Of a DNA stretch of 64,000 bases, positions 2,808 through 21,252 are shown in pieces. Source of the stretch: an uncultured Bacteroidales bacterium (lineage in GTDB: Bacteria > Bacteroidota > Bacteroidia > Bacteroidales > VadinHA17); contig CAVRBS010000013.1 in assembly GCA_963719235.1 (NCBI GenBank), forward strand, positions 71,708-135,707, read 5' to 3'. Under the pieces are notes generated by a model, which was not told where the DNA came from, searched no databases, and worked only from the letters and a program-made list of their open reading frames with translations. A program made the translations under genes and the position numbers. The first letter of the stretch is position 1, and every line of letters starts with the position of its first letter.

Positions 2808-2916
2808 TTTGCTAGATTGAAAATATTGCCTACTCTAATCAGTTTTCGGCTTTCCTGTTCTTATTCTGCTAATCTTATAAACGCTTTTGGAAGTCCAATG
2901 TTCAAGGAAGTATGAC

Positions 2917-3336: not shown

Positions 3337-3361
3337 TTTGGGGCAGCTTTACTTTTTTCTC

Positions 3362-3709: not shown

Positions 3710-4076
3710 AGATTGAGTATTAGGTTTTCCAGAAATCAGTGTTAAATCATTAACAACAAAAATTGTTCCAATTGAAGTGTAACAGCAATTATTTAAGTCG
3801 TGCGTAGGGAGTATCCTGATAGAAAGCAGGAGTATTGACTAAATAGCAGATGTTTTATAATGACGGCATGAAGGCAACTGTTGAGCGATGGTAAGTCCCG
3901 ATACAAGTGATGAAGTTGTCATGTTATAATAAAACTATCATAGAACTGAGTGAAGGCAAAATCTTGATTATCAGGTGTTACAGGGTTTTTCTGTTAGCAT
4001 TTAGGGGCCTTCAATTCTGTCACGTATTTATCACCAGAACTAGTTTGTCAAGGTACCCGGGGCACCAGGCCCTTAA

Positions 4077-4307
4077 TGCTAACGGCCGGCGGTATGGGTC
4101 TGTTGCCTTGTGTCGCGGTGGCATGGGTTTTTGCCCTCGAGCTAGACGACCCTTATTGTTTTCTTTGTTTACAGGGATAAATTTTCAGGTAATGCAAAAA
4201 CCATGACACCAGGAAGGGTAGGGCGGCCGGCGGCCGCAAAATTATCCCCCCTTACACAAATTTGGCATTGCCGGCCGAAGGCAATGACCTATACCGGCCT
4301 GTTAGGG
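4077..4307 (-). repeat. attC-like structured repeat, family B (231 bp)
   Basis: Starts TGCTAAC and ends GTTAGGG. CGGCGGTATGGGTCTGTTGCC pairs with GGCAATGACCTATACCGG. It has GTCGCGGTGGCATG and GCAAAAACCATGACACC boxes. Confidence 0.85.
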
Positions 4308-4583
4308 ATTGTAGCGGCGCAAAGATTTCTCGCGGTGCATTGTCAGTCGTCTTATGATATATGTTTTTGCGAACTGCATATTATGGTTATAACACGAGTC
4401 GATACTGTCCCTGAGGCGGAGGACAGAAGTTTCCATTTACGTGAAATAGCTAAGTCGAGCTATATAATTAAGTATTCTCGTCATACTCTTAATTTTCTTA
4501 GTTAGGGCGGGAGGGGAGAGTGCCCGCAGCGAGATGGCATGATGATCCCCCACGTATTAATGATATGCTATAGCCGCTATTAG
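4308..4583 (-). repeat. ORF-less cassette body, paralog 1 of 3
   Basis: Shares ATTGTAGCGGCG..TTTCTCGCGGTGCA, GGCGGGAGGGGAGA.(A/T)GCCCGCAGCG and GCCGCTATTAGCCCTAAC blocks with 15326-15597. It contains no ORF of 60 aa or more that avoids the repeats. Confidence 0.7.
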
Positions 4584-4710
4584 CCCTAACGACTGCAGGT
4601 ATGAACGCTTGCGTTTTCAGGGCCCTTTGTGGTCGAGTTAGCACAATGTAACCAATAGCACTAACCTACGCAAACCCTCTGCCAGCAATGGTTTATACCT
4701 GCTGTTATGC
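4584..4710 (-). repeat. attC-like repeat, minimal form (family D, 127 bp)
   Basis: Starts CCCTAAC and ends GTTATGC. CGACTGCAGGTAT pairs with ATACCTGCTG. It lacks the internal modules of families A-C. Confidence 0.6.
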
Positions 4711-4970
4711 ACTGGGCGTAACTTCCTGTCCCTTTTTAAATCTAGGTTTCACAAATACTCAATAAATCATTTTATCAAGTTATCCATATACATCCACTAA
4801 TCACCAATTTATTTTGTTTTTGAGAGATGACCAAAACTGCCCAACAAGGCAGAAAATATGTGCTGATTTGCAGGCTTTTGTAACTTCTGCTTTGCGGTTT
4901 GGTTTGTGTAAAATGCAAGTTTGCATGCAAAATGAGGGATTGACGATACGCCCGAGCGGTGGCCGAAAGC

Positions 4971-5789
4971 TTAATGCCACCCGCCTCCAGACGCTTGAAA
5001 ACTTGCAATCAGTAAGTCATGTGAGATCATGGCACCGCACTGAGTGCAGAGCCACCCGTGCCCGCGATTCAAGCTGTTCGACATCCCTAGGTTTCGTGCG
5101 ACACGCTCCATCTTGAGCATGATGCTGATCGCCTGTAAAAGGGTTTCCTTCTCGTTGGCCCTTGTTCGTTCCTCGTCCCAGCGATGCTTGGCACCGCAAG
5201 TGGGGCATTTAACCGCAAACTGGTTGTCCTCGAGCAGGCATAGTTGTCTGGCAATCAACTCTATATACTCGCCATCTGTCGATGCGGCTAACTCAGCCGG
5301 CTGTTTAACTGGTCTCTCATCCTTGTCGGGTCCCACAGGGACAAGTGTGGGGGGGCCGAACAGTTGTAAGCTTTCTTGATGTTCACAGTCGCATTTGGGA
5401 CAATGAGTAAACATGTATTTGTTTGAGCAACTAATCTCGCTTCCACATTTGCAGCATTTACCTTTAATGGCATCTGGCATGAAGGGAACAACGTCCTGCC
5501 CATGCAACCAAAAATAATAATGGAACCAGTTGGCGAATCCCTTGGGTTTATGCTCGTCGCAAAAGCAAGCCACTGGCTCAGGAACGTTGGTATACTGAGA
5601 ACAAACCGCGTTGGTGATCGGCTTGAGACACGCCTCATGCTTGCACCTGAGACCAGTTGATATCACTAACTTACGTCCACAAAGATCACAAAGTACAACG
5701 GCAGTGTTTCCTTCAAGAAACATTTTGCGACTGTCGAGCGTATGATCCGGACACGTTGGGCAAATTAACACGTTAACTTGGTAACCCAT
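4971..5789 (-). CDS. Hypothetical Cys-rich protein with multiple CxxC zinc-ribbon-like pairs
   Basis: 272 aa with at least 7 CxxC/CxC pairs (CPTCP, CDLCG, CCKCG, CPKCDC, CPTCG, CTQCG). AAGGAG lies 8 nt upstream of the ATG, with an AT-rich upstream region. Confidence 0.55.
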   Translation of the reverse strand: MGYQVNVLICPTCPDHTLDSRKMFLEGNTAVVLCDLCGRKLVISTGLRCKHEACLKPITNAVCSQYTNVPEPVACFCDEHKPKGFANWFHYYFWLHGQDVVPFMPDAIKGKCCKCGSEISCSNKYMFTHCPKCDCEHQESLQLFGPPTLVPVGPDKDERPVKQPAELAASTDGEYIELIARQLCLLEDNQFAVKCPTCGAKHRWDEERTRANEKETLLQAISIMLKMERVARNLGMSNSLNRGHGWLCTQCGAMISHDLLIASFQASGGGWH

Positions 5790-6050
5790 ATGTTTTCTCC
5801 TTTCTTGTCAGTGGCGTGGCCGAACTATTAAATAGGCTGCAAAATTGCAATCTATCATTCGTTAGTTTTTGGTTAGACAAATTAAATATTAGCAAATTAT
5901 AAAAATATTAGTTTGTATTAACACTGCAAGAAAATTTCATAATCTTGAAATAAAAATAAAAAAAATCAAAAAACTTATTCAGTAATATTAATAAATATTT
6001 TACATCCAAATATCATATAAACTATCAATTTAGTTCTATTTTCGCCTTGT

Positions 6051-6439
6051 GCCTAACGGCCCGGCAATATGGGGAGGTTGTGTTACCCGACGTAGCATCC
6101 GGGCAGGGTCCTGGTACTTTAGCCACAAAGCTGTCACGGTGCAAGGAGGGTATGGCGCGTGTTTTTGCCGTCATGGTACAAATTTTATTGCGTGCTGGCG
6201 CGATCGCGGTACAAGTTTGATCGGAGCCGTGAATTTATCACCCGTTACAAATTTGGTTACGGGCACTGGCGCAGTGTCGCGGTACAAATTGTCTCGGAGC
6301 CAGAAATTTGTCAGGTGCAGGATTTAAATTGCGTGCAGATGCGCGTGTCCGGGTGCAACAACCATTACAAATTTGTCTTGGGTGCAGGAGCAAAACAAAA
6401 ACCGTGACAAACAACTTACCCATATTGTCCGTGTTATAG
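6051..6439 (-). repeat. attC-like structured repeat, family A (389 bp)
   Basis: Starts GCCTAAC and ends GTTATAG. It is alignable to the other family A copies. Confidence 0.85.
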
Positions 6440-6609
6440 CCAGTGTTATTTTAAAACTGTCATGATGTGACAAATCTTAGAGTCATGGTTTGCAGGATCT
6501 AATCTTTGCAAGCTCTTTTAAAAGCTTTGGGTCAAGCATCAGCCCGCGTGGCTTTTAAAAGTGCTTGCAAAAGAATCAGATTATATATATCAGCTTACCT
6601 ACCCGATTG

Positions 6610-8868
6610 TCAAGGTGTATTTTTGTTTTCACTTTTTGTTATTGAAAATGGGATTCTCAAGCTTAATGCAATATTTCTCCCGGGATTAAATAATCCCACT
6701 TCTTTTAAAGTCGATAAATGGTCAATGTATTTTCTGTCAAAAAGGTTATTTGCACTTAGGCTGACTGACATAAGCTGGTTTTGGATTTTTATATTTCCTC
6801 CTATACTCAGATCCAAAAGAGAATAACCCGAAGTTGGTGTTTCATCAGGAGCAGCATTCATTTGGTTAAAGGCAGTAGTAGTATAAACTGAGACAAACGC
6901 TTTTTTCAGAAACAGTAAGTTTTCTTTTTCTGCCCTTAATTCAATACGTAATTTGTGCGCAGGTACAAAAGGTAAATAGTCACCATTGTCTTGTTTTCCG
7001 ATAACCGATGAGAATGTAGTTTCAAAATGGAGCCATTCTATTGGTTTAGGATGAATATGCAAACCCGCTTCACCACCAAACAAGGCTGAATTAGCCTGCT
7101 TGTATTTGTATATATAAATCCCTGAAGATGTAGTGTCGCCTGTTGGTGAAATAAAAATATAATTATTGATGATATTGTAAAATCCAGCAATGTCGAAGGT
7201 AAAATTTTCTTTATGGTAATGGATACTCAAATCCGTTTCGTAGGCATTTTCAGGAACAAGATTATTATCTCCGATTTCGTATCGCAATTCATGCTGCCCG
7301 TTTGAAGTAAGTTCAGCTAAATTTGGTGTGCGGTATGCAGCAGCAAAATTCGCCCTGAAAAGCATGTTTTCAGAAAAGTTATATGTTGCACCAAATGAAC
7401 CACTGAAACTCCCATAAGACTTATCAATAGCAGGACGATAAGTGTCTGATTCAGAAGATAAGCCGATTGTCTGCGTTGAAATGAATTTATTATCGTAACG
7501 AATTCCTGTCTGCAATTTCAATTTACTAAAAAACGTATACTGGAATAAACCAAATGCAGAGTAATTATTTGTTGTTGCATCAGGTAAAAGTATGGTCTCT
7601 CTGTCATTCAAATTTGTATTTGTTTGATTAAATCCCTGAAATCCTATTATGTATTCTGAATTTTCTTTTGAGGGCAAATGTAATTTTGCTTCATATGTTA
7701 AAGTTGCAAGTTTCATTTGAAGTTCATATACATTCTCTTCGCCAAAGTGGATCAATTCCGTATTCTGATAAGCCGAATTTATGTCAAGTTTAAATTTTCT
7801 TAAATACAGCTTGTTCTGCGAAGAAATTAAATGAGTATTCAATTCCTGATAAAAAATGTCGTTTTTTCTACCTCTGCCAGTTATTAATTCAATTGCTTCA
7901 TCTTCTACTAAACCAAGTTTCTGATTGTTGAAATCGTAAAACAATTTGAATGTTCCGATTTTATCTGTAAAGCCCGCATTTGCTTTAACTGAATACTCGT
8001 TAAACCGGGAGTTTGGGGTATATGCACCACCTCCCTGAAGAAAATCGGCATTTGTTTTTTGTCCTGCTCTTACTCCACCAAAGAATTTTTTCGATGCTCC
8101 CTTTATTCCAATATTATTTGTCATACCAAGGGTGTTTGAAAAAAGTTGCAGGTTGTAATCGCCTATAATATTACCAACAGGTGCTGGTTTTTCTTTGATA
8201 AAATTAATAACACCACCAATAGCATCAGAGCCGTAAAGCAACGAAGCCGGCCCCTTAATGATTTCAACATCTTCAATTCCAAATTCATCAATTCCAAGAG
8301 GATGATGACTGGAATACTGATAATTTTCAAACCGTACGCCATTATTTAAGACTAATATGTCATTCATCGAAAGTCCACGGATAACAGGTTTTGAAACTCC
8401 ACTCCCCTTTGAAATCATGTCAACACCTGGAACCTGAGTAAGCACTTCCGCGAAATTGGGTGTGATTTTAATTGTATGAGGATCTAGCTTTAGAACATCA
8501 ATTTTTACAGCATTATCATGTTGTGTGGAATTATAACCACCGGAAACCACAACTTCATCTGCTTCAACTGCCGTTTGTTTTAGTAATATATTAAGTTTTT
8601 TAGCTTCTCCACTCAGCTCAACTGTTTCAATACGGTTAGCGAAACCTACGAATGAAAACTGAATCCTGTTTTTACCATTTGGAATATTTATTAATTCATA
8701 ATTCCCATCTTTATCTGAAATTGTTCCTTTATTCATGTCTGAAATGAATATTGTCGCTCCTGGCAATGGTAAATTATTCTGATCAGTTATCTTTCCAATT
8801 ATCTTGTTTTGTGCGTTTAATGAATGATAAACTAATACCAAACCGCATACTATGAAGATTTTTTTCAT
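6610..8868 (-). CDS. TonB-dependent receptor with an N-terminal carboxypeptidase-regulatory-like domain
   Basis: 752 aa with a signal peptide, a plug region (DAIGGVINF) and a C-terminal beta-barrel ending in an aromatic-rich motif. Confidence 0.9.
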   Translation of the reverse strand: MKKIFIVCGLVLVYHSLNAQNKIIGKITDQNNLPLPGATIFISDMNKGTISDKDGNYELINIPNGKNRIQFSFVGFANRIETVELSGEAKKLNILLKQTAVEADEVVVSGGYNSTQHDNAVKIDVLKLDPHTIKITPNFAEVLTQVPGVDMISKGSGVSKPVIRGLSMNDILVLNNGVRFENYQYSSHHPLGIDEFGIEDVEIIKGPASLLYGSDAIGGVINFIKEKPAPVGNIIGDYNLQLFSNTLGMTNNIGIKGASKKFFGGVRAGQKTNADFLQGGGAYTPNSRFNEYSVKANAGFTDKIGTFKLFYDFNNQKLGLVEDEAIELITGRGRKNDIFYQELNTHLISSQNKLYLRKFKLDINSAYQNTELIHFGEENVYELQMKLATLTYEAKLHLPSKENSEYIIGFQGFNQTNTNLNDRETILLPDATTNNYSAFGLFQYTFFSKLKLQTGIRYDNKFISTQTIGLSSESDTYRPAIDKSYGSFSGSFGATYNFSENMLFRANFAAAYRTPNLAELTSNGQHELRYEIGDNNLVPENAYETDLSIHYHKENFTFDIAGFYNIINNYIFISPTGDTTSSGIYIYKYKQANSALFGGEAGLHIHPKPIEWLHFETTFSSVIGKQDNGDYLPFVPAHKLRIELRAEKENLLFLKKAFVSVYTTTAFNQMNAAPDETPTSGYSLLDLSIGGNIKIQNQLMSVSLSANNLFDRKYIDHLSTLKEVGLFNPGRNIALSLRIPFSITKSENKNTP

Positions 8869-8980
8869 TTTATTACGGGTTAATGTTTTACAAATAAGAT
8901 GTCTTACATCCGGGAGGATGTTTTAAATGCTATTTGTAAGTATGGGAGGAGCTCGTAATAAAAATGAGAATTGTGAGAGA

Positions 8981-9244
8981 TTAGAAAAATATACGGAATC
9001 TGTAATTATTGCAGAAATATTCTAAGGGGTTTTCCTTTTGGAAATCAATATCTCCGGTGTTTGATAAAAAGACAGAAAATTCAAAATTACATATAACACA
9101 ATTATCATGAAGGACATGGTAATGTTTCTCATTTATTGCTTTGCATTCAAAGTGTTCGTGGTGATGTTCAAGTTTAACTATTGAAGGCAGAAAGAAAACC
9201 AGCAATAGAAATAAAGAAGTAATATTTTTGAATTTTCTAATCAT
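8981..9244 (-). CDS. Small membrane-anchored His/Cys-rich protein (same cassette as the TonB receptor)
   Basis: 87 aa with an N-terminal transmembrane helix and KLEHHHEHFEC / HDNCVIC motifs. Confidence 0.45.
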   Translation of the reverse strand: MIRKFKNITSLFLLLVFFLPSIVKLEHHHEHFECKAINEKHYHVLHDNCVICNFEFSVFLSNTGDIDFQKENPLEYFCNNYRFRIFF

Positions 9245-9526
9245 TAAATATTCGTTCAGTCATGCTAATGTATGGTCCTTTATGAGGAACAAAGTTCAAA
9301 TCTAATTGTTTCGAAATGATTAAAAAAATGTCGTTCGAAGATTATCGTAAATTGGAAAACTGACCTAATCAGAAGGAGCGAGGGCATTTGGCTCTTTTGC
9401 TTTTGCATGTGTGTTGGGTCATGTGTCGCGTAAAAGCAAATGTGCCAAATAAGCGGTCGCGGTATATTCCGTGATTGTCGCGGCGTAGTCTATCTCGCTG
9501 AAAACGTGCACATTGGCTATAACGTT

Positions 9527-9745
9527 CCGGCGGTATGGGTCAGTTGCCTTGTGTCGCGGTGGCATGAGTTTTTGCCCTCGAGCTAGACGACCCTTATTGT
9601 TTTCTTTGTTTACAGAATTTTCAGGTAATGCAAAAACCATGACACCAGGGAGAGGGTAGGGCGGCCGGCGGCCGCAAAATTATCCCCCCTTACACAAATT
9701 TGGCATTGCCGGCCGAAGGCAATGACCTATACCGACTTGTTAGGC
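9527..9745 (-). repeat. attC-like structured repeat, family B (219 bp)
   Basis: Starts CTATAAC and ends GTTAGGC. Its interior is near-identical to 4077-4307. Confidence 0.85.
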
Positions 9746-9749
9746 ATTG

Positions 9750-10607
9750 TTAACCTTTCACAAATTCCCAATCTTTGACCTCTTCAAATGTTTTATAACC
9801 TTCTTGGACTGATGGATGCGTTAATACAAATTCTACACTTACTTCTAGTATTAATTCATCCGCAATACCGTTTTTAATAAACATAAAATTAAATCCTAAT
9901 TCATTTGCTCCAATTAGTCTATAGCCTTTCTTTTTAGCAAGTTTCACCATAGCTATAGGAGAGGCCCCATGATAAACGGGATGTCTTTTTGAATATTCAG
10001 ATTTAGGATCATAAGGAACGATGATATCATTTAAACCAAATTCATTATGAGTTTCAATAATAACGACTTTAGGATCAATGATTGATAGAGCATCCCAAAC
10101 CCAATAGTCATTACCATCAATATCAATTGAAAGGAGTCCAATCTCTCCACTAAATCCGGCTTTGCCAATTATTTGATTTACATTTTCGCGAGTAACCTTT
10201 TCACAAATGAATTTTGGTTTGTACTGCAATGGATTAGGGTATTTGTTATAGAAACGTCTACCACGTTTAACACTCCATTTGTCACAATCAATAAATAAAC
10301 CATACCAACCGAAATTGAAGAAGAGATTAGCACAATTGCTATTGATTCCGTCATTTGCACCAATTTCCACAAACTGTTTGTTATCCATACCGATTATTGA
10401 GAAGATGAACAGAAGTTTACCATCTTCTTCATTTTGTGAGAAGACCCGGAATCCAGTATCATTTAGGTTGAGTACCTTACCGGATTGAGCAAGATCTTGA
10501 TAATAATGAAAAAGTTTACGTTGCTGAATTTGGATCGATGGATTAAACCTATTCCGAATTTTCAGGATTAGGAACCAGTCCTTAATGATATGTTTTAGTA
10601 TGTTCAT
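9750..10607 (-). CDS. FkbM family methyltransferase
   Basis: 285 aa with a FVEIGANDG SAM-binding-like motif and FkbM-like length and organisation. Confidence 0.65.
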   Translation of the reverse strand: MNILKHIIKDWFLILKIRNRFNPSIQIQQRKLFHYYQDLAQSGKVLNLNDTGFRVFSQNEEDGKLLFIFSIIGMDNKQFVEIGANDGINSNCANLFFNFGWYGLFIDCDKWSVKRGRRFYNKYPNPLQYKPKFICEKVTRENVNQIIGKAGFSGEIGLLSIDIDGNDYWVWDALSIIDPKVVIIETHNEFGLNDIIVPYDPKSEYSKRHPVYHGASPIAMVKLAKKKGYRLIGANELGFNFMFIKNGIADELILEVSVEFVLTHPSVQEGYKTFEEVKDWEFVKG

Positions 10608-10631
10608 CTTAATTTGTTGACGGTTAATAAT

Positions 10632-10873
10632 GCCTAACGGCCCGGCGGTATGTGCAGTTGGCGCAGAGGTCGCGGTGGCGCGTGTTTTTGCACTCGTGGT
10701 GCGATGCAGGGTTACGATGTTATTACTTTATTCTCGCGTTGGCAAAAACCGTGACACCAGGAAGGAGTCCCCGGCGGGAGCCGGGGCGGCCGTGCGCCGC
10801 CACAAAATTTCTTCTTTATAACCAGATATTTTCGCGCCACGGAGCGGCAATTGCATATACCGACCTGTTAGTG
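10632..10873 (-). repeat. attC-like structured repeat, family C (242 bp)
   Basis: Starts GCCTAAC and ends GTTAGTG. CGGCGGTATGTGCAGTTGGCGC pairs with GCGGCAATTGCATATACCG. It has a CCCCGGC-GGGA-GCCGGGG hairpin. Confidence 0.85.
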
Positions 10874-10963
10874 GCCGTTTGTTTTGACATATTCGGAAAT
10901 CTTTTAATATAGATCCAATTAAACTGTAAAGAATAATTCGGATTTGGTAGCTTATTGCCCATA

Positions 10964-11269
10964 TCAAACTTCATAATATGATAAGAGAATTGCAGTAAGC
11001 AAACTTATCACAGCAAGAGCTGTCAATATCCTGTAGATGATCATATAGGTTTTGAAAAGCTTTCTAACCTTCTGGTCTTTCTCCAGTGCTATTAACTCCC
11101 TATATTTTTCATTGTCAAAGAGCAATATGGTAAATCGAAACTCCATTGATCCCTTGATAAGTTTCCTTGATGCCATATTCATTTTTATGATCAATGCCAT
11201 AATTACGGCTGCTCCGATTGAGATGAAGGCCAACAGACGAATGATTTGAAATTTGATAGAATCTTCCAT
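10964..11269 (-). CDS. Hypothetical small membrane protein
   Basis: 101 aa with two predicted transmembrane helices. Confidence 0.45.
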   Translation of the reverse strand: MEDSIKFQIIRLLAFISIGAAVIMALIIKMNMASRKLIKGSMEFRFTILLFDNEKYRELIALEKDQKVRKLFKTYMIIYRILTALAVISLLTAILLSYYEV

Positions 11270-11337
11270 GAATGGTAACCTATTATTTCATGTAAGGCTA
11301 AGTCTTATGTGAATTTGCATGGAAAGCATTTAATGGC

Positions 11338-11586
11338 CACTAACGGCCGGCGGTATGGGTCTGTTGCCTTGTGTCGCGGTGGCATGAGTTTTTGCCATCG
11401 AGCTTGACGACCACAATATTTCATTTTGATCACAGAATTTTCAGGTAATGCAAAAACCATGACACCATTGCGGGAGAACCCCGCCTGTGGCGGGGGCGGC
11501 CCGGCCAGCTAAGCTTACAGAACGAGGTTTCAATTATCATCAGTCGTGCTGGCCGGAAGGCAATGACCTATACCGACTTGTTATGT
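11338..11586 (-). repeat. attC-like structured repeat, family B (249 bp)
   Basis: Starts CACTAAC and ends GTTATGT. It has a CCCCGCC-TGT-GGCGGGG hairpin and a CCGGCCAGC/GCTGGCCGG stem. Confidence 0.85.
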
Positions 11587-11678
11587 GCAGGCATTTATTT
11601 TATCTATAATGGTTATCGTTTATATCAAATGAGAAGGAGCATAATCAATAGTAAAGCTATGAATCAGATTCGGGTATT

Positions 11679-11981
11679 TCAATTATGTTGAGATTTATGA
11701 CATAAATCGCAGACGGAGACTAGCCATTTAATGGGTTCCTTTCCGAGGTTCTTTTTTGCATATTTCTTGTGGTGGACTTGGGTTGCAGGTGCTCCACAGT
11801 ATACACAATGCCAGTTATCTCGTTTGAGCACTACATATCGCTTACGTTTCCAATCATCTGATTTTAAATACTCGTTTCGGTAATAGTTTCGACGGCGTGC
11901 ACGCTTAATATATAACGACCAAAGTGATAAAACCAATAAGACAACGAAAATGATTACAACGATTAGGATCTGATTTTCCAT
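11679..11981 (-). CDS. HNH endonuclease-domain protein with an N-terminal transmembrane helix
   Basis: 100 aa with WHCVYCG...VHHKKY...CDLCHKSQH (an HNH/zinc-finger pattern) after a hydrophobic N-terminus. Confidence 0.6.
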   Translation of the reverse strand: MENQILIVVIIFVVLLVLSLWSLYIKRARRRNYYRNEYLKSDDWKRKRYVVLKRDNWHCVYCGAPATQVHHKKYAKKNLGKEPIKWLVSVCDLCHKSQHN

Positions 11982-12071
11982 AATATTGTCTAAATGGATA
12001 TTATTTGGCGAGCACAGGATGCTGTCAATTTTCTTATAGGCTCTTCTCCCTTTTTATGCGACTTTGCTTGC

Positions 12072-12314
12072 ACATAACGGTCGGCGGTATGTGCAGTTGG
12101 CGCAGAGTCGCGGTGGCACGCGTTTTTGCACTCGTGGTGCGGTGCAGGAATATGCTGTTATTAGTTTATTCTCGCGTTGGCAAAAACCGTGACACCAGGA
12201 GGGAGTCCCCGGCGCCAGCCGGGGCAGGCCGCACCGCCGGCCACTTAACGGTCCTCTTTAGCCAGAAAATTCTCGCGGTGCGGAGCGCCAATTGCATATA
12301 CCGACCTGTTAGCA
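12072..12314 (-). repeat. attC-like structured repeat, family C (243 bp)
   Basis: Starts ACATAAC and ends GTTAGCA. It is alignable to 10632-10873. Confidence 0.85.
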
Positions 12315-12326
12315 AACGTAACAGTT

Positions 12327-12931
12327 TTATACAATGTCAATTAGCTCTTTTAACTTTTTAATGCTCAGTTTCTTAGGTTTAATGGTTATCAGACTAGGGC
12401 CAGAGTAGTAACGAATAAATAGCTGGTTTGCCTCTTTGATTTCCATTACTATTGAAACCGGTATTTCATAACTGAACCTAGTAATTTTTCTGTTATTTTC
12501 TGAATACCCTGTTGTTACAGAAACAGTTGTTGAATCTGAGGTTGGAATATCCGTTGTGTTTTCTGAGATAGTTTTCACATTTTCAAGTTCAATTTTATCA
12601 ATAGCCATGGGGTATGGCTTATTATCAATAATCAGGATTACCTTTTCATCAAGCTTGAAGCTGGAACTAGTTAGGAATAAGACATCATAGGCACGATATG
12701 ACACATCATTATTTTGATCTATTTCCTTGACGATTGACTGTGTAAAGAAATAGATTGGTGTTCGGTGATCTCGATCTTTGTAATCATATTTAAGTTCAAA
12801 TCTTTTGGTTGAGTAAACAATATCATCTTCTGAGTAGATCTTGTTAAGGTGGAGCAACTGGATAACATTGCACAAACCAGGCCTATTCCTAGGACTTGGT
12901 AGGGTACACCAATTTTGCATTGCTTTTTCAT
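12327..12931 (-). CDS. Hypothetical lipoprotein (apparent frameshift near 12850)
   Basis: The signal peptide and lipobox (AMLSSCS) lie in ORF 12719..12931. The body lies in ORF 12327..12920 in another frame. Confidence 0.45.
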
Positions 12932-12965
12932 TTCAGTTTATTATCAATTATTTACATGTTATGTT

Positions 12966-13359
12966 TGCTAACGGCCCGGCAATAAGGGTAGGTTGCGTTA
13001 CCCGACGTTAGCACCGGCCACCGTCCTGGTGCTTTAGCCAAAAAATAGTCCCGGTGCAAGGAGGGTATGGCACGCGTTTTTGCCGTCATGGTGCAAATTT
13101 TATTGAGCATTACGAGTGTCGCGGTACAAGTTTTATAGGTGGATGGGAAACTGTCTCGGTTGCAGGAAACTTGTAAATGGGCACTGGCGCAGTGTCGCGG
13201 TACAAACTGTCTCGAAGCCATAAAATAGTCTTGGTGTAGGAATTAACTTACGTACAGCTGCGCGTATCCGGGTGCCATGGCCATTATGAATTTGTCTTGG
13301 TAGCAGGATTAAAAGCAAAAACCGTGACAAGCAACTTACCCTTATTGTCCGTGTTATGC
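12966..13359 (-). repeat. attC-like structured repeat, family A (394 bp)
   Basis: Starts TGCTAAC and ends GTTATGC. It is alignable to the other family A copies. Confidence 0.85.
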
Positions 13360-13367
13360 CACGTAGG

Positions 13368-14504
13368 TTATTTAGTTTTATTCAATTTAGTTTCAAGCCT
13401 CTTTGGAATCATATCTTTATTAACCATTACTGAAATTGTTTTTAAAAGCAGATATTTTTCAGACATATAAATATATCCCCCACAATCATTATTATTACCC
13501 TCCGAATTTTTAAGAATGTAATATGCATTACCATTTTTATCTTTAGCAAGTCCAATTAAGTGCATATTATGGTCATCTTGCGTGGTGAAATTATCAAATG
13601 TAAGCTGCCTCATTTCTTGAGTAATGGAAGAATCATGTATTAAATTCCCCGCTTAGTTCTGCAATACCTTTTTCATCTTCGAATCCTGAATTCAGAGACG
13701 TCACCGTCCCAACAAAGCGAATATCCTTGTTTGAGGGCGTTATCGATAACTTCTTTAAAATCCTGTATTGGAAGGTTTAAATAAAAGTTATGATTCCAGT
13801 TCGCCGGGATTTCTAAAATAATTTTTTGATAAAATGGATGATGATTATAACTTGTAATTTCAGTGTAATCGTCTGGGTTTATCCCAATCTTTTCTGCAGC
13901 AAAGGTAATTGGAGTATAACTTTTCCCTTCATAAATAAAGGAATCAGGAGGGTTTCCAAGATATGCATTCAAAGTAGAACTCTATTGATTTTTTCCAACT
14001 GTCCTGTTTTATCTTACCATAATCTGATGCTCCAACTGATTTTACCATTGCAAATAAAAGATTGTCCATTTCGTAATGGTCATGTTTATATTCGCCAAGT
14101 ATTATTCCATTATAAAACTCTTCAGGTATTGCACCATATTTTTTATATGTATTCATTACACTAAATGTTAAATCCCCCTCAGCAAAGTAGCTATTACCAT
14201 GTAATCTAATATACTTATCTGCTTTGGCAATATATGCTGGGGTTACATAAAAAATAGGAGAAAGTATTACAGGTTCTTTACCTAATCTAATCGCTTCTGT
14301 TTCAATAAATGAAGTAGTCGCAAAACTCCAGCATGTTCCTGATGATTGTTGGTTCTTTATCGATGTGCTTTCAATTAGTTTTATAACCTTAAATCCTTCT
14401 TTTTGTTGGGAATATGTTATTAAACTAATGGGAAAATAGAAGAAAATAAAAAGAGTAAAAATTCTTGTGTTCATGTTTTTTGTTAATGATAGTAAAATTT
14501 TCAA
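13368..14504 (-). pseudogene. C1 family (aminopeptidase C / bleomycin hydrolase-like) cysteine peptidase, split into three frames
   Basis: The active-site motif QQSSGTCWSFATT is in 13944..14504. The middle part is in 13673..13972. The C-terminal His region (HNMHLIGLAKDKNGNAYY) is in 13368..13613. Confidence 0.75.
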
Positions 14505-14528
14505 TTAGTTGCACGGCCTTTCTATGTG

Positions 14529-14829
14529 GCATAACGTTTGGCCGGTATGGGTCAGTTGCCGCAGGATAGGGGTGAGGTGGTTTTGCACTCCAGCGGTGCC
14601 TGGTATTGCTTTAGAATACGATAAACTATCATCTTATTACTTTATCAGCCGCTCGATCCATGTGACCACAAATTTGTTACGCAGCAAAAGCGGCTAAAAT
14701 AGAATGTAACGTGCAAAACCATCTCACCGGTAGGGTTGACCCGGCCAGGTAAGTTTACTGAATGAGTTCGTTATATTTACTATTGGTCGCGCTGGCCGGA
14801 AGGCAATGACCTATACCGGCCTGTTAGGG
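14529..14829 (-). repeat. attC-like structured repeat, family B (divergent copy, 301 bp)
   Basis: Starts GCATAAC and ends GTTAGGG. The internal stem is replaced on both sides: GGTGAGGTGGTTTTGCAC pairs with GTGCAAAACCATCTCACC. This is a compensatory change relative to the other B copies. Confidence 0.8.
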
Positions 14830-15096
14830 ATTGTAGCGGCAGCTTATGTTTATCTGGTTACTGATGGTTATGCGTAGTAAAAACCTACTTAAAGAAATTT
14901 TCTCTGATTGCCACGTATGTGGTATAAACCACAGGCCATTTAAATGAAACAGATTGAAAAGGTGTGGGCCAGCCCAGCTATAGAGTTAATCTGAAGCATT
15001 CGAGCAGTTAAATGTTTAAACAAGGGCGCGCAGGCAGCTATTGGCCGCGATTGTCATGAGGGGTCTTTTTATAAGTCATTTCTCTGCCGCTATTGG
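14830..15096 (-). repeat. ORF-less cassette body, paralog 2 of 3 (only the ends are conserved)
   Basis: It has the same 18-nt terminal inverted repeat as the other two paralogs (GTTAGGGATTGTAGCGGC ... GCCGCTATTGGCCCTAAC). Confidence 0.6.
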
Positions 15097-15325
15097 CCCT
15101 AACGTTTGGCCGGTATGGGTCAGTTGCCTTGTGTCGCGGTGGCATGTGTTTTTGCCATCGAGCTTGACGACCGCGGATTTTCATTTTGATAACAGAATTT
15201 TCAGGTTATGCAAAAACCATGACACCATGAAGGGAGGGCCCGGCCAGCACTTTGAAAATTTACTTACATATTACTAAATTGTCCCGCTGAGCCGGAAGGC
15301 AATGACCTATACCGGCCTGTTAGGG
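15097..15325 (-). repeat. attC-like structured repeat, family B (229 bp)
   Basis: Starts CCCTAAC and ends GTTAGGG. It has B-type termini and boxes. Confidence 0.85.
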
Positions 15326-15597
15326 ATTGTAGTGGCGTAAGAATTTCTCGCGGTGCAGGTATAGTTGTTTTACCAAAATATTGAAGCGAACGAAAATCAA
15401 TTTTTATCACCCGCGTTACTGACTCTTGAGCGGAGAACTAATGTCTCCTGTTGCGTGAAATAGCCGTGTCGTGATAGAAGGTTTGTTATTCTCCTCATGC
15501 ACTTAGTTTTCTAGGTCAAGGCGGGAGGGGAGAAAGCCCGCAGCGTGACGAAGTGATGATTCTCTATATCTGTATGGCTCGCTAACGCCACTATTAG
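15326..15597 (-). repeat. ORF-less cassette body, paralog 3 of 3
   Basis: See 4308-4583. The homologous blocks occur in the same order. Confidence 0.7.
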
Positions 15598-15840
15598 CCC
15601 TAACGGTCGGCGGTATGTGCAGTTGGCTCAGAGTCGCGGTGGCGCGTGTTTTTGCACTCGTGGTGCGGTGCAGGATTATGCGGTTATTACTTTATTCTCG
15701 CGTTGGCAAAAACCGTGACACCAGGAGGGAGTGCCCCGCGGCAGCCGGGGCCGGCCTGTGCCGCCACCACTAAACCTGTCGTCTTTAGCTACAAGGTTTT
15801 CGCGGCACAGAAGCCAATTGCATATACCGACCTGTTACAG
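15598..15840 (-). repeat. attC-like structured repeat, family C (243 bp)
   Basis: Starts CCCTAAC and ends GTTACAG. The stop codon of ORF 15835..16341 lies inside the right core (CTGTAAC on the minus strand). Confidence 0.85.
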
Positions 15841-16341
15841 GGCGTTTAGTTTATTGTTAAGTATCTCTCTTAAATCATCAATTTGTTTATTTCTGGCAAT
15901 AATTTCTCCGTTTGGTGATATTAACAGTAAAGATGGATAGCTACTAATCTTTAGTTTTTCTGTGATAGAGTTTTTATCAAATTGAGTTTGATTAACAAAT
16001 AGGTGCTTCCAATCCATTTTATTTTCATTTGTAAAATCAAATACAATTTTTGGATCACTATCAAATGCTATACTGATTAATACGAAATTTTTGTCTTTGT
16101 AATCATTGTTTAAATCCTGAAGTTCAGGTATTAGCTTTATACATGGATTACACCATGTACCCCAAAAGTCAAATAAGATATATTTGCCCTCATAGTCCTT
16201 AAAAGTAAATAGTGATTTATCAAGGTAATACGCATTGAACTTTGGTACATAGAAGCCTTCTGTGAAGCCATAAGGATGAGAATTCTTACCAACATATTCA
16301 AGGAATATGCTATCACCCCATTTGGAGATCGAGTGAATCAC
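15835..16341 (-). CDS. TlpA family thiol-disulfide oxidoreductase (thioredoxin fold)
   Basis: 168 aa with a FWGTWCNPC CxxC motif. Confidence 0.8.
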   Translation of the reverse strand: MIHSISKWGDSIFLEYVGKNSHPYGFTEGFYVPKFNAYYLDKSLFTFKDYEGKYILFDFWGTWCNPCIKLIPELQDLNNDYKDKNFVLISIAFDSDPKIVFDFTNENKMDWKHLFVNQTQFDKNSITEKLKISSYPSLLLISPNGEIIARNKQIDDLREILNNKLNAL

Positions 16342-17171
16342 GTAATCATTACCCTTGACATTGAAAATATCCCCATTCCAAACGGAATGTCCCCATTTAA
16401 TTCAGAAGGCACGATACCTGTCTTTGGGAAAATAAAAAGTTTTGTTCTATTAGGCTCATAAATATTACCTGAGAAATAATTGGATGCAGTAACTTCACAT
16501 TTAGTCTTGTTCAGTGAAATGACTCCTTGTTTATATTCCGGGAAGCTGACAAAAAGGAAAAACTTCTTTTCAACCTCATTATCAGTATTATAATTAATGC
16601 CCATTGTCCCCTTATAAGGGCTTGGCATTATTTTTACAGACTTTGTTTGTACCTCATCATTTTCAAAATACTCATACTGGGTTAGTATAATAGGCAAATT
16701 TTGTTCTATTTCTTTCTGTTTCTCGATAGGAATGGGATAGTCATATTCGTTGATTTTTTCGTCGGCGAAGTCTTCATCATTATCTGAATCTACGATAATT
16801 ACTCGCCTACCGTTTTTGTCTCCAATCAGAACCAGAACTTTGCAATCAACATCCACATTCGCGAGTGTTGTTGTATCAATTTTGTAGTAGTCAATTATCT
16901 GATTAATAGTGTTTTTGTCTATCTGTTTGTTTAAATATCGGTTCCAATAATATTGATCTGGTTGCAGGGCAAGGCTTCTTACAACAAACTCAGACATATC
17001 AATGGGTACGTTTCGATAGTAAGCCGAGTCATTAATTGGGAATAATATCCTATTCCCGGGTAGAAATACGCCATAACCATCAACTGATTTGAGATCTACC
17101 TTTAGGTTTGTTGTTTTGTTTGTGCAAGAAGTTAGTAGTAGGAAAAGAATCAAAAATATATTGTTTTTCAT
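16338..17171 (-). CDS. Hypothetical lipoprotein (co-cassette with the TlpA-like gene; 4-nt overlap)
   Basis: 277 aa with a signal peptide and an LTSC lipobox. Confidence 0.55.
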   Translation of the reverse strand: MKNNIFLILFLLLTSCTNKTTNLKVDLKSVDGYGVFLPGNRILFPINDSAYYRNVPIDMSEFVVRSLALQPDQYYWNRYLNKQIDKNTINQIIDYYKIDTTTLANVDVDCKVLVLIGDKNGRRVIIVDSDNDEDFADEKINEYDYPIPIEKQKEIEQNLPIILTQYEYFENDEVQTKSVKIMPSPYKGTMGINYNTDNEVEKKFFLFVSFPEYKQGVISLNKTKCEVTASNYFSGNIYEPNRTKLFIFPKTGIVPSELNGDIPFGMGIFSMSRVMIT

Positions 17172-17194
17172 GTTTACGAAAATTTTAAAATGCC

Positions 17195-17439
17195 CTGTAA
17201 CGTTCGGCGGTATGTGCAGTTGGCGCAGAGTTGCGGTGGCGCGTGTTTTTGCACTCGTGGTGCGATGCAGGGTTATGATGGTTAGTTAGTTTATTCTCGC
17301 GTTGGCAAAAACCGTGACACCAAGAGGGAGTCCCCGGCTGGAGCCGGGGCAGGCCGCACCGCCGACCACTTAACGGTCCTCTTTAGCCAGAAAGTTCTCG
17401 CGGTGCGGAAAGCCAATTGCATATACCGACCTGTTGTGC
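17195..17439 (-). repeat. attC-like structured repeat, family C (245 bp)
   Basis: Starts CTGTAAC and ends GTTGTGC. It is alignable to the other family C copies. Confidence 0.85.
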
Positions 17440-17668
17440 CTTGTTGCCTTTACTTTACATCAATTGAGTTGTTTTTTTCTTTAAGCATTGAAATGAACTT
17501 TTCCTGGTTTTCTGGACTAATTGATATTGAACTGCCATTACCATATGATATCTCCATGCATTTCCATGACAAAGTTGGTTTGATTATCCCGCCAACAGTA
17601 TCTTGATCTAGTCTAATTGCTTTAATCTCTGGTAATATGGACAGTTTTATGCATTGGGCCTGAATTTA

Positions 17669-17893
17669 TTAGTAAATCGTCAGCTTCAATGCAGATAATA
17701 AGTATTGGTCCAGAACCAAATAAACAAACCAATTACCAGAAATAGTAATTATTGCGCTTATTAGAAAATATACTATTGAAAAATTACCAGCAATTAATGG
17801 TATTCCAAAAGCACAGAAAATAAGTAAAGAACTTACTATAAGGAGTAAAATTCCAAATCCCTTAGACTTGCGTGAACTGAATTTCTCTATCAT
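17669..17893 (-). CDS. Hypothetical small membrane protein
   Basis: 74 aa with two predicted transmembrane helices. Confidence 0.4.
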   Translation of the reverse strand: MIEKFSSRKSKGFGILLLIVSSLLIFCAFGIPLIAGNFSIVYFLISAIITISGNWFVYLVLDQYLLSALKLTIY

Positions 17894-17942
17894 GATGCAT
17901 GTTGATTAAATCGGTTCTGATTGAGTTCTGTTATGCAATTAG

Positions 17943-18191
17943 GCACAACGGGCGGCGGTATGGGTCAGTTGCCTTGTGTCGCGGTGGCATGAGTTTTTGC
18001 CATCGAGATTGACGACCACAGAATTACATTTTGATAACAGAATTTTCAGGTAATGCAAAAACCATGACACCACTGCGGGAGACCCCGCCAGTGGCGGGGG
18101 CAACCCGGCCAGCTAAGCTTACAGAAAGAAGTTTCAAATTAACATAAGTCGTGCTGGCCGGAAGGCAATGACCTATACCGACCTGTTGTGT
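17943..18191 (-). repeat. attC-like structured repeat, family B (249 bp)
   Basis: Starts GCACAAC and ends GTTGTGT. Its interior is nearly identical to 11338-11586 and 19533-19784. Confidence 0.85.
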
Positions 18192-18197
18192 GCTGGA

Positions 18198-18758
18198 GGT
18201 TATCTAAAAGCATGATTTTATGTGGATCCTGACGAGTGTCGTAAATCCTCAGAATATCAATATGATCTTTGCTATCTCTATAAAACAAAGAATTATGCTT
18301 GGTTACAGACAACCTTTCTGATTCTCTTCTTCTTGTAGATCAAAGGATATTGCTTTAGATTTCAGATACTTTGATTAATTAAGTGCTCTGTAACGGTCGA
18401 TGAATTGGTTAACTGACCTTGTAATCCCAATTAATACTAAGATTAGGCTATGGATTTGATTAAAGTCTTTTTCAGAGAAGTGGATGACACAGATAACGTG
18501 TTTATGCACGGGAATACTTTTTACGGTATTTGGATATTATCGCATTGATAGGGAAATCCCTTTGCCCGTTTCTATTTCTTCAATTGCCTCAAAAATACCG
18601 TTCCTCTGAGTATCAGTAAGTTGAGATATCCCAATTTGTCAACTCTTTCTGACCATTGATAAAGTTGACAACCACACCGTATAATTCTTCTAACTTGCTC
18701 TTTTCAAGCAAGATTTATCTGACGGAAATATTCTAAGTTTTATATCTGAAGTGGTCAT
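18198..18758 (-). pseudogene. Degraded type II toxin-antitoxin pair (RelE/ParE-like toxin plus addiction-module antitoxin-like)
   Basis: Minus-strand translation gives ...LTDTQRNGIFEAIEEIETGKGISL... It is followed, across several stops and frameshifts, by ...SLFYRDSKDHIDILRIYDTRQDPHKIM, which resembles a ParE/RelE C-terminus. Confidence 0.35.
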
Positions 18759-18828
18759 TTTACTTATTTAATTACAAAGGTTACAAAATTTAAGCCAATG
18801 ATTAATTAAGGATTCGTTATGCCCTGGC

Positions 18829-19071
18829 ACATAACGTTCGGCGGTATGTGGCGTTGGCGCAGAGTCGCGGTGGCGCGTGTTTTTGCACTCGTGATGCGGT
18901 GCAGGGTTATACGGTTATTACTTTATTCTCGCGTTGGCAAAAACCGTGACACCAGGAGGGAGCCCCCGGCGGGAGCCGGGGCAGGCCGTACCGCCGACCA
19001 CTTAGCGGTCCTCTTTAGCCAGAAAGATCTCGCGGTACGGAGAGCCAATGACATATACCGACCTGTTAGGC
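18829..19071 (-). repeat. attC-like structured repeat, family C (243 bp)
   Basis: Starts ACATAAC and ends GTTAGGC. It is alignable to the other family C copies. Confidence 0.85.
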
Positions 19072-19076
19072 AACGT

Positions 19077-19467
19077 TTATTTTAAGACAGTTACTATTTT
19101 CAATTGATTCAAATACAGGCTAATTCCATTCTCCTCAATACATAATAGAAATACTTCATCAGCACTACTAATTAGCCCGTCAGATGATGAATTAGCTATT
19201 TCGGAGAATGTGATTTGGTAGTCACTGTTAAAGACAACTTTATATTTTACTGTTGCAACGAATGGCCTTCCGGATCCGAAAATTTTCCGGACGATGTAAT
19301 AGTCTTGCTTTTCCTTAATAAGCGTGATGCTTTGACCTGCAAAACGGTCAATGATCTGTATTTCATGGTCTAAGTAGTCTTTAATTTTTGACTTTATTAT
19401 CTTTTATTTGTGCTGGAAGGGAGCAAGCTACTAGAACCAACAAAAGGACTGGGATTAGTTTATACAT
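19077..19467 (-). pseudogene. Hypothetical lipoprotein, interrupted
   Basis: The minus strand reads MYKLIPVLLLVLVACSLPAQIKDNKVKN-stop. It then continues in another frame (KDYLDHEIQIIDRFAGQSITL...VTVLK-stop). Confidence 0.3.
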
Positions 19468-19532
19468 GCTTTAATAGATTTAATTCTATTTTGTGGGTCA
19501 ATAAGGAACTCTCATCCCTATTTCATAATGTT

Positions 19533-19784
19533 GCCTAACGGTCGGCGGTATGGGTCTGTTGCCTTGTGTCGCGGTGGCATGAGTTTTTGCCATCGAGCTT
19601 GACGACCACAGAATTTCATTTTGATCACAGAATTTTCAGGTAATGCAAAAACCATGACACCATCTGCGGGAGACCCCGCCGTGTGGCGGGGGCAGCCCGG
19701 CCAGCTAAGCTTACAGAATTGAATTCTTTTTTTACAAGTAGTCGTGCTGGCCGGAAGGCAATGACCTATACCGACTTGTTAGAC
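19533..19784 (-). repeat. attC-like structured repeat, family B (252 bp; the element closest to the recombinase gene)
   Basis: Starts GCCTAAC and ends GTTAGAC. It has B-type termini and boxes. Confidence 0.85.
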
Positions 19785-19983
19785 ATTGGCGGATTAGTTA
19801 AATTGGCTTGATAAGTATGTTGTTACATACTATTGTTATGATATGTAATTTTCTGCCCAATGGGTTATTAGCAGTTAGCTTTCGGGTTATACATTAATGA
19901 ATGTATCAATTTGCTTTACCGGTCAGGGTTCAGAATTGCTGAATTTATTACAGATAAGTTCTTTCAGATAAATTACCGCTTGT

Positions 19984-20079
19984 GCCTAACTCGTTTATAT
20001 GGGTACTAAAGGTAGGCATATTTGACGGAAATGGGTGTTATTGGATACCTGTGGTGGCTTTTACAGACAACAGTAATTA
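19984..20079 (-). other. Candidate attI-like region with an orphan core site (GCCTAAC on the plus strand, GTTAGGC on the minus strand) between the recombinase stop and the first cassette
   Basis: GCCTAAC lies at 19984-19990, followed by TCGTTTATATGGGTAC. This resembles the left arm of family A (GCCTAACGGCCCGGCAATATGGGG), but no element body follows. The site lies 90 nt from the recombinase stop. Confidence 0.4.
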
Positions 20080-21252
20080 TCATAAATCATCAAACGGCGT
20101 GCGAATCTTCTGAATACTCTTCTCCGTCACATGCGTGTAAATCTCAGTAGTCCTGCTGCTCTTGTGCCCTAATAATTCCTGGATATACCGCAGATCCGTA
20201 CCTGCCTCTAAAAGATGCGTTGCATAACTGTGACGCAACCCATGAAGAGTAATGCTCTTCTTTATCCCTGCCTTCTCTACTGCCATCCTGAATACCTTCT
20301 CAATACTCGCAGCACTGTACCTGCTCACCCTGACGCTGCCCTTCAAAAAGATAAACTACCGGGACGATAACGCTTAAGATACGAAGTCTATCATCTCAAC
20401 CAGCTTCACCGAGACCGGTACAATCCGGTCCTTGAACCCCTTCGACTGCCTGACACTTAAAAGCATCCGGTCACGGTCAATATCCTCCGACTCAAGCGTG
20501 ATTACCTCACTTCTGCGCAGCCCGCATCCGTAAATAATACTTAATATCGCCCTGTGCTTCTCATTCATCGGGGCCGTCAAGATCTTCTTTACTTCTTCTT
20601 TGCTCAGTACATTGGGCAGCTTATGTCGTGTACGGGGACGGGTGAACTCGCCGGGGTCAATGACCTCACGACAAATCTCTTTGTAGAATTTCTTGACTGC
20701 ACTTATCAGCTGATTTTGAAATGAGTAACTCAATCCCTCTGGTATAATATATTCATTGACCATCCTTACGAGGTCATCAGTATTACATTCTGAGGCCTCC
20801 TTGGGCGAAACAAACCTCAGGAAGGCCACCATCATCGATGTGTAGGTCCTGACGGTTGTAGGCGGATACCTGTGCGATTCGAGCCAGCTTCGATACCTTT
20901 CAATATCATCCAGCGCCGTTTTGCTAAGCTTCTTGTCATTGAAGATCGATCTTGCTATCTCTTAGCACAGGTAGGCGTGACTCTTAAGCTGACTAATCCC
21001 TGCTTTGCTTAAACCTCTGACCTTGTCGAAAGTCCTGCTTTCTGAATCTGAATTCAATTCTGCAAATTCTGAGAGCCTTTAATAACCTGATAACTTCATC
21101 GTCAGAAATATGCCAGCAATTCATTCTCTTATCCATCTGCATCTGGTAAAGCTTCCTGACGAGTCATTTACAACCTCTTCATCATAAGGGAACTTGAGGG
21201 CAACACGCATTCCACTGTCGTGCTTCACCCTCTCGGCAATTACGGTAATCAT
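20080..21252 (-). pseudogene. XerC/D-like tyrosine recombinase (not a canonical IntI), with about 5 frame disruptions
   Basis: The C-terminal part reads [39 protein letters not shown]...IRTPFDDL. The middle part reads GLRRSEV...KGFKDRIVPV. The N-terminal part reads MITVIAERVKHDSGMRVALKFPYDEEVV. These pieces lie in different frames with internal stops. Confidence 0.8.

Follow-up and report, generated by a model that had tools for sequence, protein, structure and literature searches.

The stretch of DNA analyzed here (hereafter the window: 64,000 nucleotides (nt) of contig CAVRBS010000013.1 from an uncultured Bacteroidales bacterium) carries on its - strand, in the order of transcription, the rnfCDGEA operon (23353-27463), a few genes, the gene of a tyrosine recombinase, an attI-like site and at least 18 gene cassettes, the latter separated by long palindromic repeats which are the main subject of this work. 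Eighteen copies of the repeat, 127-423 nt long, were found between positions 858 and 19784, on the + strand only, and no further copy was present in the remaining 44 kb of the window on either strand. This part of the window (bases 1-19,800) has a lower G+C content than the rest, and the box TCGCGGTRS, occurring 24 times on the + strand within 1-19.6 kb, was absent from the rest of the 64 kb when both strands were scanned. All open reading frames (ORFs) of the array lie on the - strand, with one repeat at each gene boundary and in a single orientation. Their products comprise a CAAX protease, a cupin, a TonB-dependent receptor and a thioredoxin-like protein, the majority being of unknown function; the HNH match in one cassette remained below the Pfam cut-off (20.5 bits vs 21.4).

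The preliminary description of this DNA had sorted the repeats into four size classes sharing one scaffold. All 18 copies exist and fall into classes A (328-423 nt), B (229-301 nt), C (242-245 nt) and D (127 nt), the minimum for class B being 229 nt and not 219 nt as given there; the set of features proposed as common to all four classes is reduced in class D to the terminal stem, without the GTCGCGGT box and also without the TTTTTGC/GCAAAAAC pairing (proposed there for A-C only). The stems and hairpins themselves were all found where they had been placed, namely the distal hairpins CCCCGCC-TGT-GGCGGGG of class B (11480-11496), CCCCGGC-GGGA-GCCGGGG of class C (approximately 10769-10786) and GCGGCC-GGC-GGCCGC (approximately 4221-4235 and 9662-9676), as well as the replaced central stem GGTGAGGTGGTTTTGCAC/GTGCAAAACCATCTCACC, containing one G·T pair, in the divergent copy at 14529-14829.

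Relatives of the repeat were collected by one pattern scan of species-representative genomes (GTTTTTGC-N40-70-GCAAAAACCRTGACA), which gave at least 119 related stretches; the window and 119 related loci (labelled L with a number) made up a set of 358 elements. Their lengths have a mode of 240-249 nt and a maximum of about 430 nt, approximately 309 of the 358 (86%) measuring 200 nt or more, and form a continuum starting from a 66-nt element which consists of the terminal stem alone. Minimal relatives of this kind lie inside the same arrays, one in L020 (275-340; 66 nt, terminal stem only) and two in L033 (2610-2730 and 3935-4055; 121 nt, terminal stem with a short TTTTGC/GCAAAA hairpin and a small hairpin), and represent a natural deletion series. 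Among the matches listed, the long contigs all belong to metagenome-assembled genomes (MAGs) of uncultured Bacteroidales or Rikenellaceae, and the arrays on them span 24-40 kb; one of the arrays carries a HigB toxin, and in L120 12 of the 13 array genes are co-oriented. Matches labelled as other phyla (Firmicutes, Anaerolineae, archaea and others) come from contigs of which almost all are 24 kb or shorter, and these hits outside Bacteroidales are probably mis-binned repeat-rich contigs rather than real hosts. Array fragments binned in this way to other taxa occur in L016, L037, L051, L052, L059, L061, L077, L086, L088, L090 and L110, under the labels of Firmicutes, a Cyanobacteria-related lineage, Chloroflexi, Caldisericales, Deltaproteobacteria, Verrucomicrobiota and two archaea; all of these contigs are 24 kb or shorter, and most are below 10 kb.

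Each element is bounded by RYYYAAC and GTTRRRY, its left end starting with YTAACG and its right end closing with TGTTA(G), and integron attC sites have the same cores. When GTTRRRY of one element was compared with RYYYAAC of the next, full complementarity of the outer 4 nt was seen at 62% of 351 adjacent junctions, as compared with 5% for the two ends of the same element and 3.8% for random pairs. Counted outward from GTT, the complementarity between neighbors is kept at positions 3-9 and drops sharply beyond them; the switch in end complementarity falls between positions 0 and 3, and the crossover position is located to within 3 nt. In the window itself, 10 of the 17 junctions match at 10 of 10 positions and three more at 9 of 10, vs 3-7 of 10 for the ends of the same element. 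Such complementarity of neighboring ends results if the crossover that linearizes a circular cassette takes place within GTT, leaving every ORF flanked by two halves of one 10-bp R box. Recent duplications point to the same unit: in 11 of 12 spacer pairs with an identity of 97% or more, the ORF had been duplicated together with the element at its 3' side (mean identity 0.91 vs 0.69). The cassette unit is the ORF together with its 3' site. Cassettes of the window reappear in other MAGs with 92-97% identity and with different neighbors, i.e., they are shared between genomes. No target-site duplications were found around the elements, the flanks being instead exchanged between neighbors.

Between the recombinase gene and the array lies a block of about 75 nt, which is shared by eight loci (the window, L033, L035, L036, L048, L085, L007 and L120) and has the consensus RYYYTAAC followed by TYGTTTATATG..AAAGGTA.GCATATTT..GAAATGGGTGTTATTG. 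The outer bases of this conserved block are complementary to the right end of the last array element, with an exact match in five of seven loci as well as in L120, which is the behavior of an attI site. Its position fixes the polarity of the system: as G↓TT (the arrow marks the crossover) is found at the attI boundary on the - strand, the latter is the top one, and the cassettes are read as ORF and then site. The first 'cassette' beside attI in the window (19785-19984) is about 200 nt long and has no ORF, with a 7/10 junction to its own site; the same 10-mer, TGTGCCTAAC, is present at the attI junction and at the left end of the element at 6051.

A tblastn search revealed the same recombinase, with 61-93% identity, in six array-bearing loci, at the same end of the array and in the same orientation; the seventh locus, L120, was reached via the protein itself and encodes a recombinase 57% identical to that of the window. 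The reading frames are intact in all these seven loci, and the order of recombinase, attI and array is the same in the eight loci, as is their relative orientation. An rnf operon lies upstream of the recombinase in L120 (1-2541) as it does in the window, thus the platform is found downstream of rnf in both loci in which the upstream sequence could be seen. This common context indicates that the platform is chromosomal and probably vertically inherited, and it seems to occupy a conserved chromosomal site; blastn searches of plasmid and phage collections in distant mode gave no match to the elements and hence no sign of a mobile carrier. In L048, L036, L085 and L120 the recombinase and attI are separated by a gene of the Exo_endo_phos family (about 270 amino acids (aa)), possibly encoding an accessory nuclease; this gene is absent from the same place in the window, L033, L035 and L007.

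The intact recombinase homolog P0001 (404 aa) displayed 30% identity to a hand-entered IntI1 sequence, the alignment being interrupted by a 43-aa gap precisely where the IntI-specific domain lies. The nearest solved relatives of the recombinase are XerA, IntI4 and XerD, and 2A3V (VchIntIA) is among the top structural and sequence matches; the Foldseek list of PDB entries is dominated by full-length tyrosine recombinases. With the XerA model of NCBIfam the score was 209 bits at a cut-off of 220, and the protein remained below every curated NCBIfam cut-off, while the public names of the family are only 'tyrosine-type recombinase/integrase' or 'XerD'. In addition, the recombinase possesses an N-terminal beta/alpha domain of about 70 aa, confidently predicted and followed by a disordered linker, for which no Pfam match was obtained at E<=10.

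The fold of the elements was analyzed on 147 copies of the ~243-nt class (each below 93% identity, median 78%), aligned with MAFFT only. Since RNAalifold applied to this alignment gave only 38 pairs, and fewer with DNA parameters, the consensus structure of 57 pairs was built from the minimum free energy DNA fold of each individual sequence. The helices of the preliminary description hold on this objectively made alignment, 95.3% of the cells in paired columns being able to pair, vs 35-49% when the 3' partners were slid by 1-3 columns. The inference drawn there from double-sided substitutions, namely selection on a folded structure, is correct: such changes were present in 21 pairs and 400 cells, vs 11-16 pairs and 16-65 cells in the slid controls, and in helix 8 compensatory changes occur at all nine of its nine pairs (one pair, for example, reads UA in 66 sequences, CG in 55 and GC in 14). 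None of 500 column shuffles reached any of the covariation measures, and on the + strand the folds were more stable than those of dinucleotide shuffles (z about -4.2). Covarying pairs were also present in the terminal stem (five, or seven with two R-box pairs of helix 1), in the distal hairpin (four) and in the central stem (at least one in the 147-copy set).

Within the central stem, T5GC/GCA5 does not covary but is retained as a sequence. Part of this invariance among the 147 copies is an ascertainment effect, these copies having been collected with the scan pattern; it is also seen, independently of that pattern, in class-A copies. In the latter, CAT/ATG, CAC/GTG and CAG/CTG replace one another beside the T-run while T5GC/GCA5 stays fixed, and shorter relatives display CACC-TTTTGC/GCAAAA-GGTG and similar swaps. 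Conservation in primary sequence extends to TAAC, GGTATG, TCGCGG and TGACA, which together with T5GC/GCA5 argues for selection on both structure and sequence. The predicted fold of the + strand is an imperfect palindrome with the R box TAAC/GTTA (10 bp in the circular cassette), a stem of 20-25 bp and, where ordinary attC sites have a small loop, a branched core made up of the central stem (T5GC/GCA5...TGACA), a hairpin rich in G+C and a helix of 9 bp that covaries freely; in class A an extra chain of hairpins carries GTCGCGGTACA boxes. For the terminal part, the fold predicted most often contains a 3-nt bulge in the 5' arm and, two base pairs away, a single A/G bulge in the 3' arm, this assignment being a prediction for which an alternative register is possible.

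The two strands of the elements are not equivalent. The + strand is the more stable one in 97% of 352 copies, by 6.8 kcal/mol on average; about half of this difference is accounted for by base composition, and after subtraction of dinucleotide shuffles an excess of about 3.7 kcal/mol remained, the + strand being the better one in 90% of 40 sampled elements. Moreover, G·T is the conserved state of four pairs on the + strand (147, 144, 133 and 106 of the 147 sequences), and each of them would be a C·A mismatch on the mRNA-sense strand. The better-folding + strand is antisense to every cassette ORF in the window, and its extra stability and conserved G·T pairs thus place the selected fold on the strand antisense to the cassettes. 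In integrons, this is the bottom strand, the one that is recombined (PMC3053210). Most likely, what is selected is not an RNA but a recombination site of the integron type, folded as a single strand of DNA.

Taken together, these results lead us to interpret the repeats as attC-type sites of a sedentary, integron-like cassette platform carried by the chromosome of this uncultured Bacteroidales bacterium, a reading to which we assign a probability of roughly 85%. According to it, the recombinase would bind the folded + (bottom) strand and cut it within AA↓C, equivalent to G↓TT on the top strand, whereupon cassettes would be exchanged, excised and inserted at attI. Catalysis by the adjacent recombinase is likely, since the gene order is repeated in eight loci. 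That the substrate is single-stranded DNA we infer from the better folding of the + strand and its retained G·T pairs.

Several observations weigh against this interpretation. The recombinase is devoid of the IntI-specific domain (the 43-aa gap relative to IntI1), which in the solved IntI complexes contacts an extrahelical base (PMC3053210), and it reached only 198 bits, in two pieces, with the integron-integrase model TIGR02249 (cut-off 265). The predicted unpaired features of the sites differ from the canonical two extrahelical bases on the same side with N6 spacing, and any role of the sequence-conserved central module is putative. The junction at attI in the window matches at only 7 of 10 positions, and the older duplicates of cassettes (80-92% identity) display no preference for either side (15 vs 23). 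Support for recombination activity and for a single-stranded substrate is indirect. Finally, the frame of the recombinase gene in the window is interrupted at least three times; the two interruptions examined are 1-nt differences in homopolymer length, and the breaks may be assembly errors. Single-base homopolymer differences break the frame at 20340-20400, within this gene, and those of several cassette ORFs, e.g., at 13380-13972, 17460-17900 and 18200-18780. This looks more like long-read assembly error than like pseudogenes, and breaks of such a type make pseudogene calls in the window unsafe.

A structured non-coding or cis-regulatory RNA, for instance a stabilizer of the 3' untranslated region or a terminator, would account for the strong covariation and the branched fold, and the position of the element directly 3' of the ORF makes its co-transcription probable. 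We nevertheless consider this explanation very improbable, as both the retained G·T pairs and the surplus of stability belong to the antisense strand, leaving C·A mismatches in the mRNA, and as it leaves the complementarity of neighboring ends, the attI site and the linked recombinase unexplained. The search of the elements against Rfam 15 yielded no match at the gathering thresholds nor even at E<=1, which also speaks against an RNA. As for a terminator, no T/U run follows the GC-rich hairpins on the mRNA strand, and inspection by eye, with no scan made, gave no convincing match to the Bacteroidetes promoter TTTG...TAnnTTTG in the class C and B consensus on either strand.

It is likewise most unlikely that the elements form a canonical integron array whose true IntI is located elsewhere or has been lost (a cluster of attC sites lacking integron-integrases, CALIN), the Xer-like recombinase being a bystander. 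The absence of the IntI domain from the adjacent enzyme and its broken frame in the window fit such a scenario. On the other hand, the same recombinase family (57-93% identity) stands in the same position and orientation next to a rule-obeying attI in eight independent loci from different MAGs, tblastn with the hand-entered IntI1 sequence revealed no further integrase in the array-bearing loci (662 kb in total), and the non-canonical architecture of the sites fits a different enzyme. Also very improbable is that the elements are selfish palindromes similar to repetitive extragenic palindromes and bacterial interspersed mosaic elements (REP/BIME) or miniature inverted-repeat transposable elements (MITE), spread by transposition and unrelated to the recombinase: their high copy number, palindromic structure, intergenic location and several size classes would suit it, whereas the single orientation in one contiguous array with exactly one copy per gene boundary and none in the other 44 kb, the exchange of flanks between neighbors, as in cassettes, in place of target-site duplications, the joint movement of ORF and site and the constant abutment of the array on attI and the recombinase do not.

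The integron-like platform proposed here shares with integron attC sites (59-base elements), e.g., the homogeneous repeats (VCRs) of the sedentary chromosomal integron of Vibrio cholerae, the RYYYAAC...GTTRRRY ends, the imperfect palindrome, for which R and L boxes as well as unpaired positions are predicted here, the location of one site 3' of each promoterless ORF, the crossover in GTT, owing to which the initial bases of each cassette are complementary to its site, the retention of structure more than of sequence and the asymmetry between strands; as in chromosomal integrons, tens of cassettes adjoin attI and a tyrosine recombinase. Published attC sites are approximately 57-141 nt long, and the default maximum attC size of IntegronFinder is about 200 nt, whereas the Bacteroidales sites typically measure ~243 nt and reach ~430 nt. 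The terminal structure that is variable in attC sites is here a conserved multi-helix junction with TCGCGG, T5GC/GCA5 and TGACA, the predicted bulges are unlike T-N6-G, and the R box is 10 bp long; in classical attC sites, the two extrahelical bases are on the same side and six nucleotides apart (PMC3053210). With IntI (TIGR02249; VchIntIA, 2A3V) the recombinase has in common the catalytic and core-binding domains of the Xer/IntI group, the C-terminal ...IRxPxDxL motif and a gene beside attI, and differs from it by the absence of the alpha-I2 insertion and by the extra N-terminal domain with its linker.

Another departure from the canonical integron is that the recombinase gene is co-directional with the cassettes. 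In integrons of the Treponema denticola group (see also PMC3607928) the integrase is likewise transcribed toward the array, with attI beyond its 3' end. As far as is known, the IntI domain is retained in those enzymes, and the attC sites they act on are of the usual length. Xer/dif modules (pdif of Acinetobacter plasmids, archaeal XerA) resemble the Bacteroidales platform in the XerA/XerD-like core and in genes bracketed by sites. Dif-like sites, however, are double-stranded, about 28 bp long and of alternating orientation, in contrast to the 127-423-nt hairpins of one orientation, the attI-type anchor and the integron-style exchange of flanks described here.

As reconstructed here, the platform would operate in the manner of an integron, yet two of the defining features, the IntI domain and the length of attC, do not apply to it. 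In practice, integrons are defined by an integrase with the IntI domain and by short attC hairpins, and the Bacteroidales platform breaks both rules. The authors of IntegronFinder do not regard recombinases without the IntI domain near attC sites as integron integrases (PMC4889954), and Bacteroidetes have been reported to contain only In0 elements and one complete integron, that of Salinibacter (PMC9024848). Our full-text search, which covered papers open without a subscription, revealed no account of a platform of this kind in Bacteroidales, nor of cassette arrays or long attC sites in this order. A rather doubtful extension of our interpretation is that it represents a separate class of integrons, widespread in uncultured Bacteroidales and Rikenellaceae and missed by the finders, in which a Xer-like enzyme never had or has lost the IntI domain and reads the branched core by its N-terminal domain. 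That domain would recognize the TCGCGG boxes and the T5GC/GCA5-TGACA stem, i.e., arm-type recognition would replace the reading of extrahelical bases, and the finders would miss the platform since they require an IntI domain and short attC sites. A complete platform with arrays of 20-40 kb is present in many environmental Bacteroidales genomes. If active, it would widen the host range of integron-like systems and enlarge their pool of cassette genes, would mean that the IntI domain is dispensable for the folded-strand cassette mechanism, and would offer a natural test of which parts of attC are needed, as the same ends occur on sites of 66-430 nt.

Table 1. Components of the putative cassette platform in the window and examples of related arrays (positions refer to the window unless a contig is named).
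Feature	Position	Strand	Length and remarks
Cassette array	1-19984	-	small ORFs, one repeat 3' of each; continues past the left end of the window
attC-like site, class A	858-1185	+	328 nt; right-end 10-mer matches the next left end 10/10
attC-like site, class A	1825-2247	+	423 nt; GC-rich insert of ~33 nt
attC-like site, class A	2917-3336	+	420 nt; terminal stem replaced on both sides
attC-like site, class B	4077-4307	+	231 nt; distal hairpin GCGGCC-GGC-GGCCGC
attC-like site, class D	4584-4710	+	127 nt; terminal stem only, no central module
attC-like site, class A	6051-6439	+	389 nt
attC-like site, class B	9517-9745	+	229 nt
attC-like site, class C	10632-10873	+	242 nt
attC-like site, class B	11338-11586	+	249 nt
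attC-like site, class C	12072-12314	+	243 nt
attC-like site, class A	12966-13359	+	394 nt
attC-like site, divergent class B	14529-14829	+	301 nt; both halves of the central stem replaced
attC-like site, class B	15097-15325	+	229 nt
attC-like site, class C	15598-15840	+	243 nt
attC-like site, class C	17195-17439	+	245 nt
attC-like site, class B	17943-18191	+	249 nt
attC-like site, class C	18829-19071	+	243 nt
attC-like site, class B	19533-19784	+	252 nt; last element before attI
attI-like site	19985-20062	-	+ strand reads CCTAAC followed by TCGTTTATATGGGTACTAAAGGTAGGCATATTTGACGGAAATGGGTGTTATTGG...; conserved recombinase side, variable cassette side
Tyrosine recombinase gene, Xer/IntI type	20080-21252	-	transcribed toward the array
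Array example, CAWFSO010000001.1	1,184-1,224 kb		
Array example, CAWHED010000001.1	488-520 kb		

Some smaller features of the array deserve mention. A GC-rich insert of about 33 nt, CGCCGCGCCCCGCGCGAACACAGTGAGCAGCGGGG, occurs in two class-A copies only (window positions 1900-1945 and 2993-3040); the GCGCGAACGCAGTGAGCGCAAT repeats in L074 (791-900) are related to it, and the insert looks like a small nested repeat within the sites. Where the TonB-receptor cassette begins (9380-9516), clustered TCGCG(G) boxes and a TTTTGC...GCAAA pair are located outside the complete elements and may be the remnant of a decayed class-A site by which two cassettes became fused.

Two cassettes of about 270 nt without an ORF (4312-4585 and 15331-15599) represent two subtypes with 68% mutual identity, and such a cassette was found in seven other loci of Bacteroidales MAGs with 89-96% identity. 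It displays compensatory pairing of its ends (TAGCGGCG..CGCCGCTA vs AGTGGCG..CGCCACT), a GGCGGG-AGGGGAGARR-CCCGC hairpin and a conserved GTGAAATAGC, gave no match in Rfam, and is a candidate for a structured RNA or a single-stranded DNA cassette. Finally, the DUF805b RNA motif (RF02914) was detected on the - strand at 2827-2859, with 36.0 bits vs the gathering threshold of 35.6, just 5' of the cassette ORF 2298-2807, a position which implies that a cis-regulatory RNA motif travels within the cassette.

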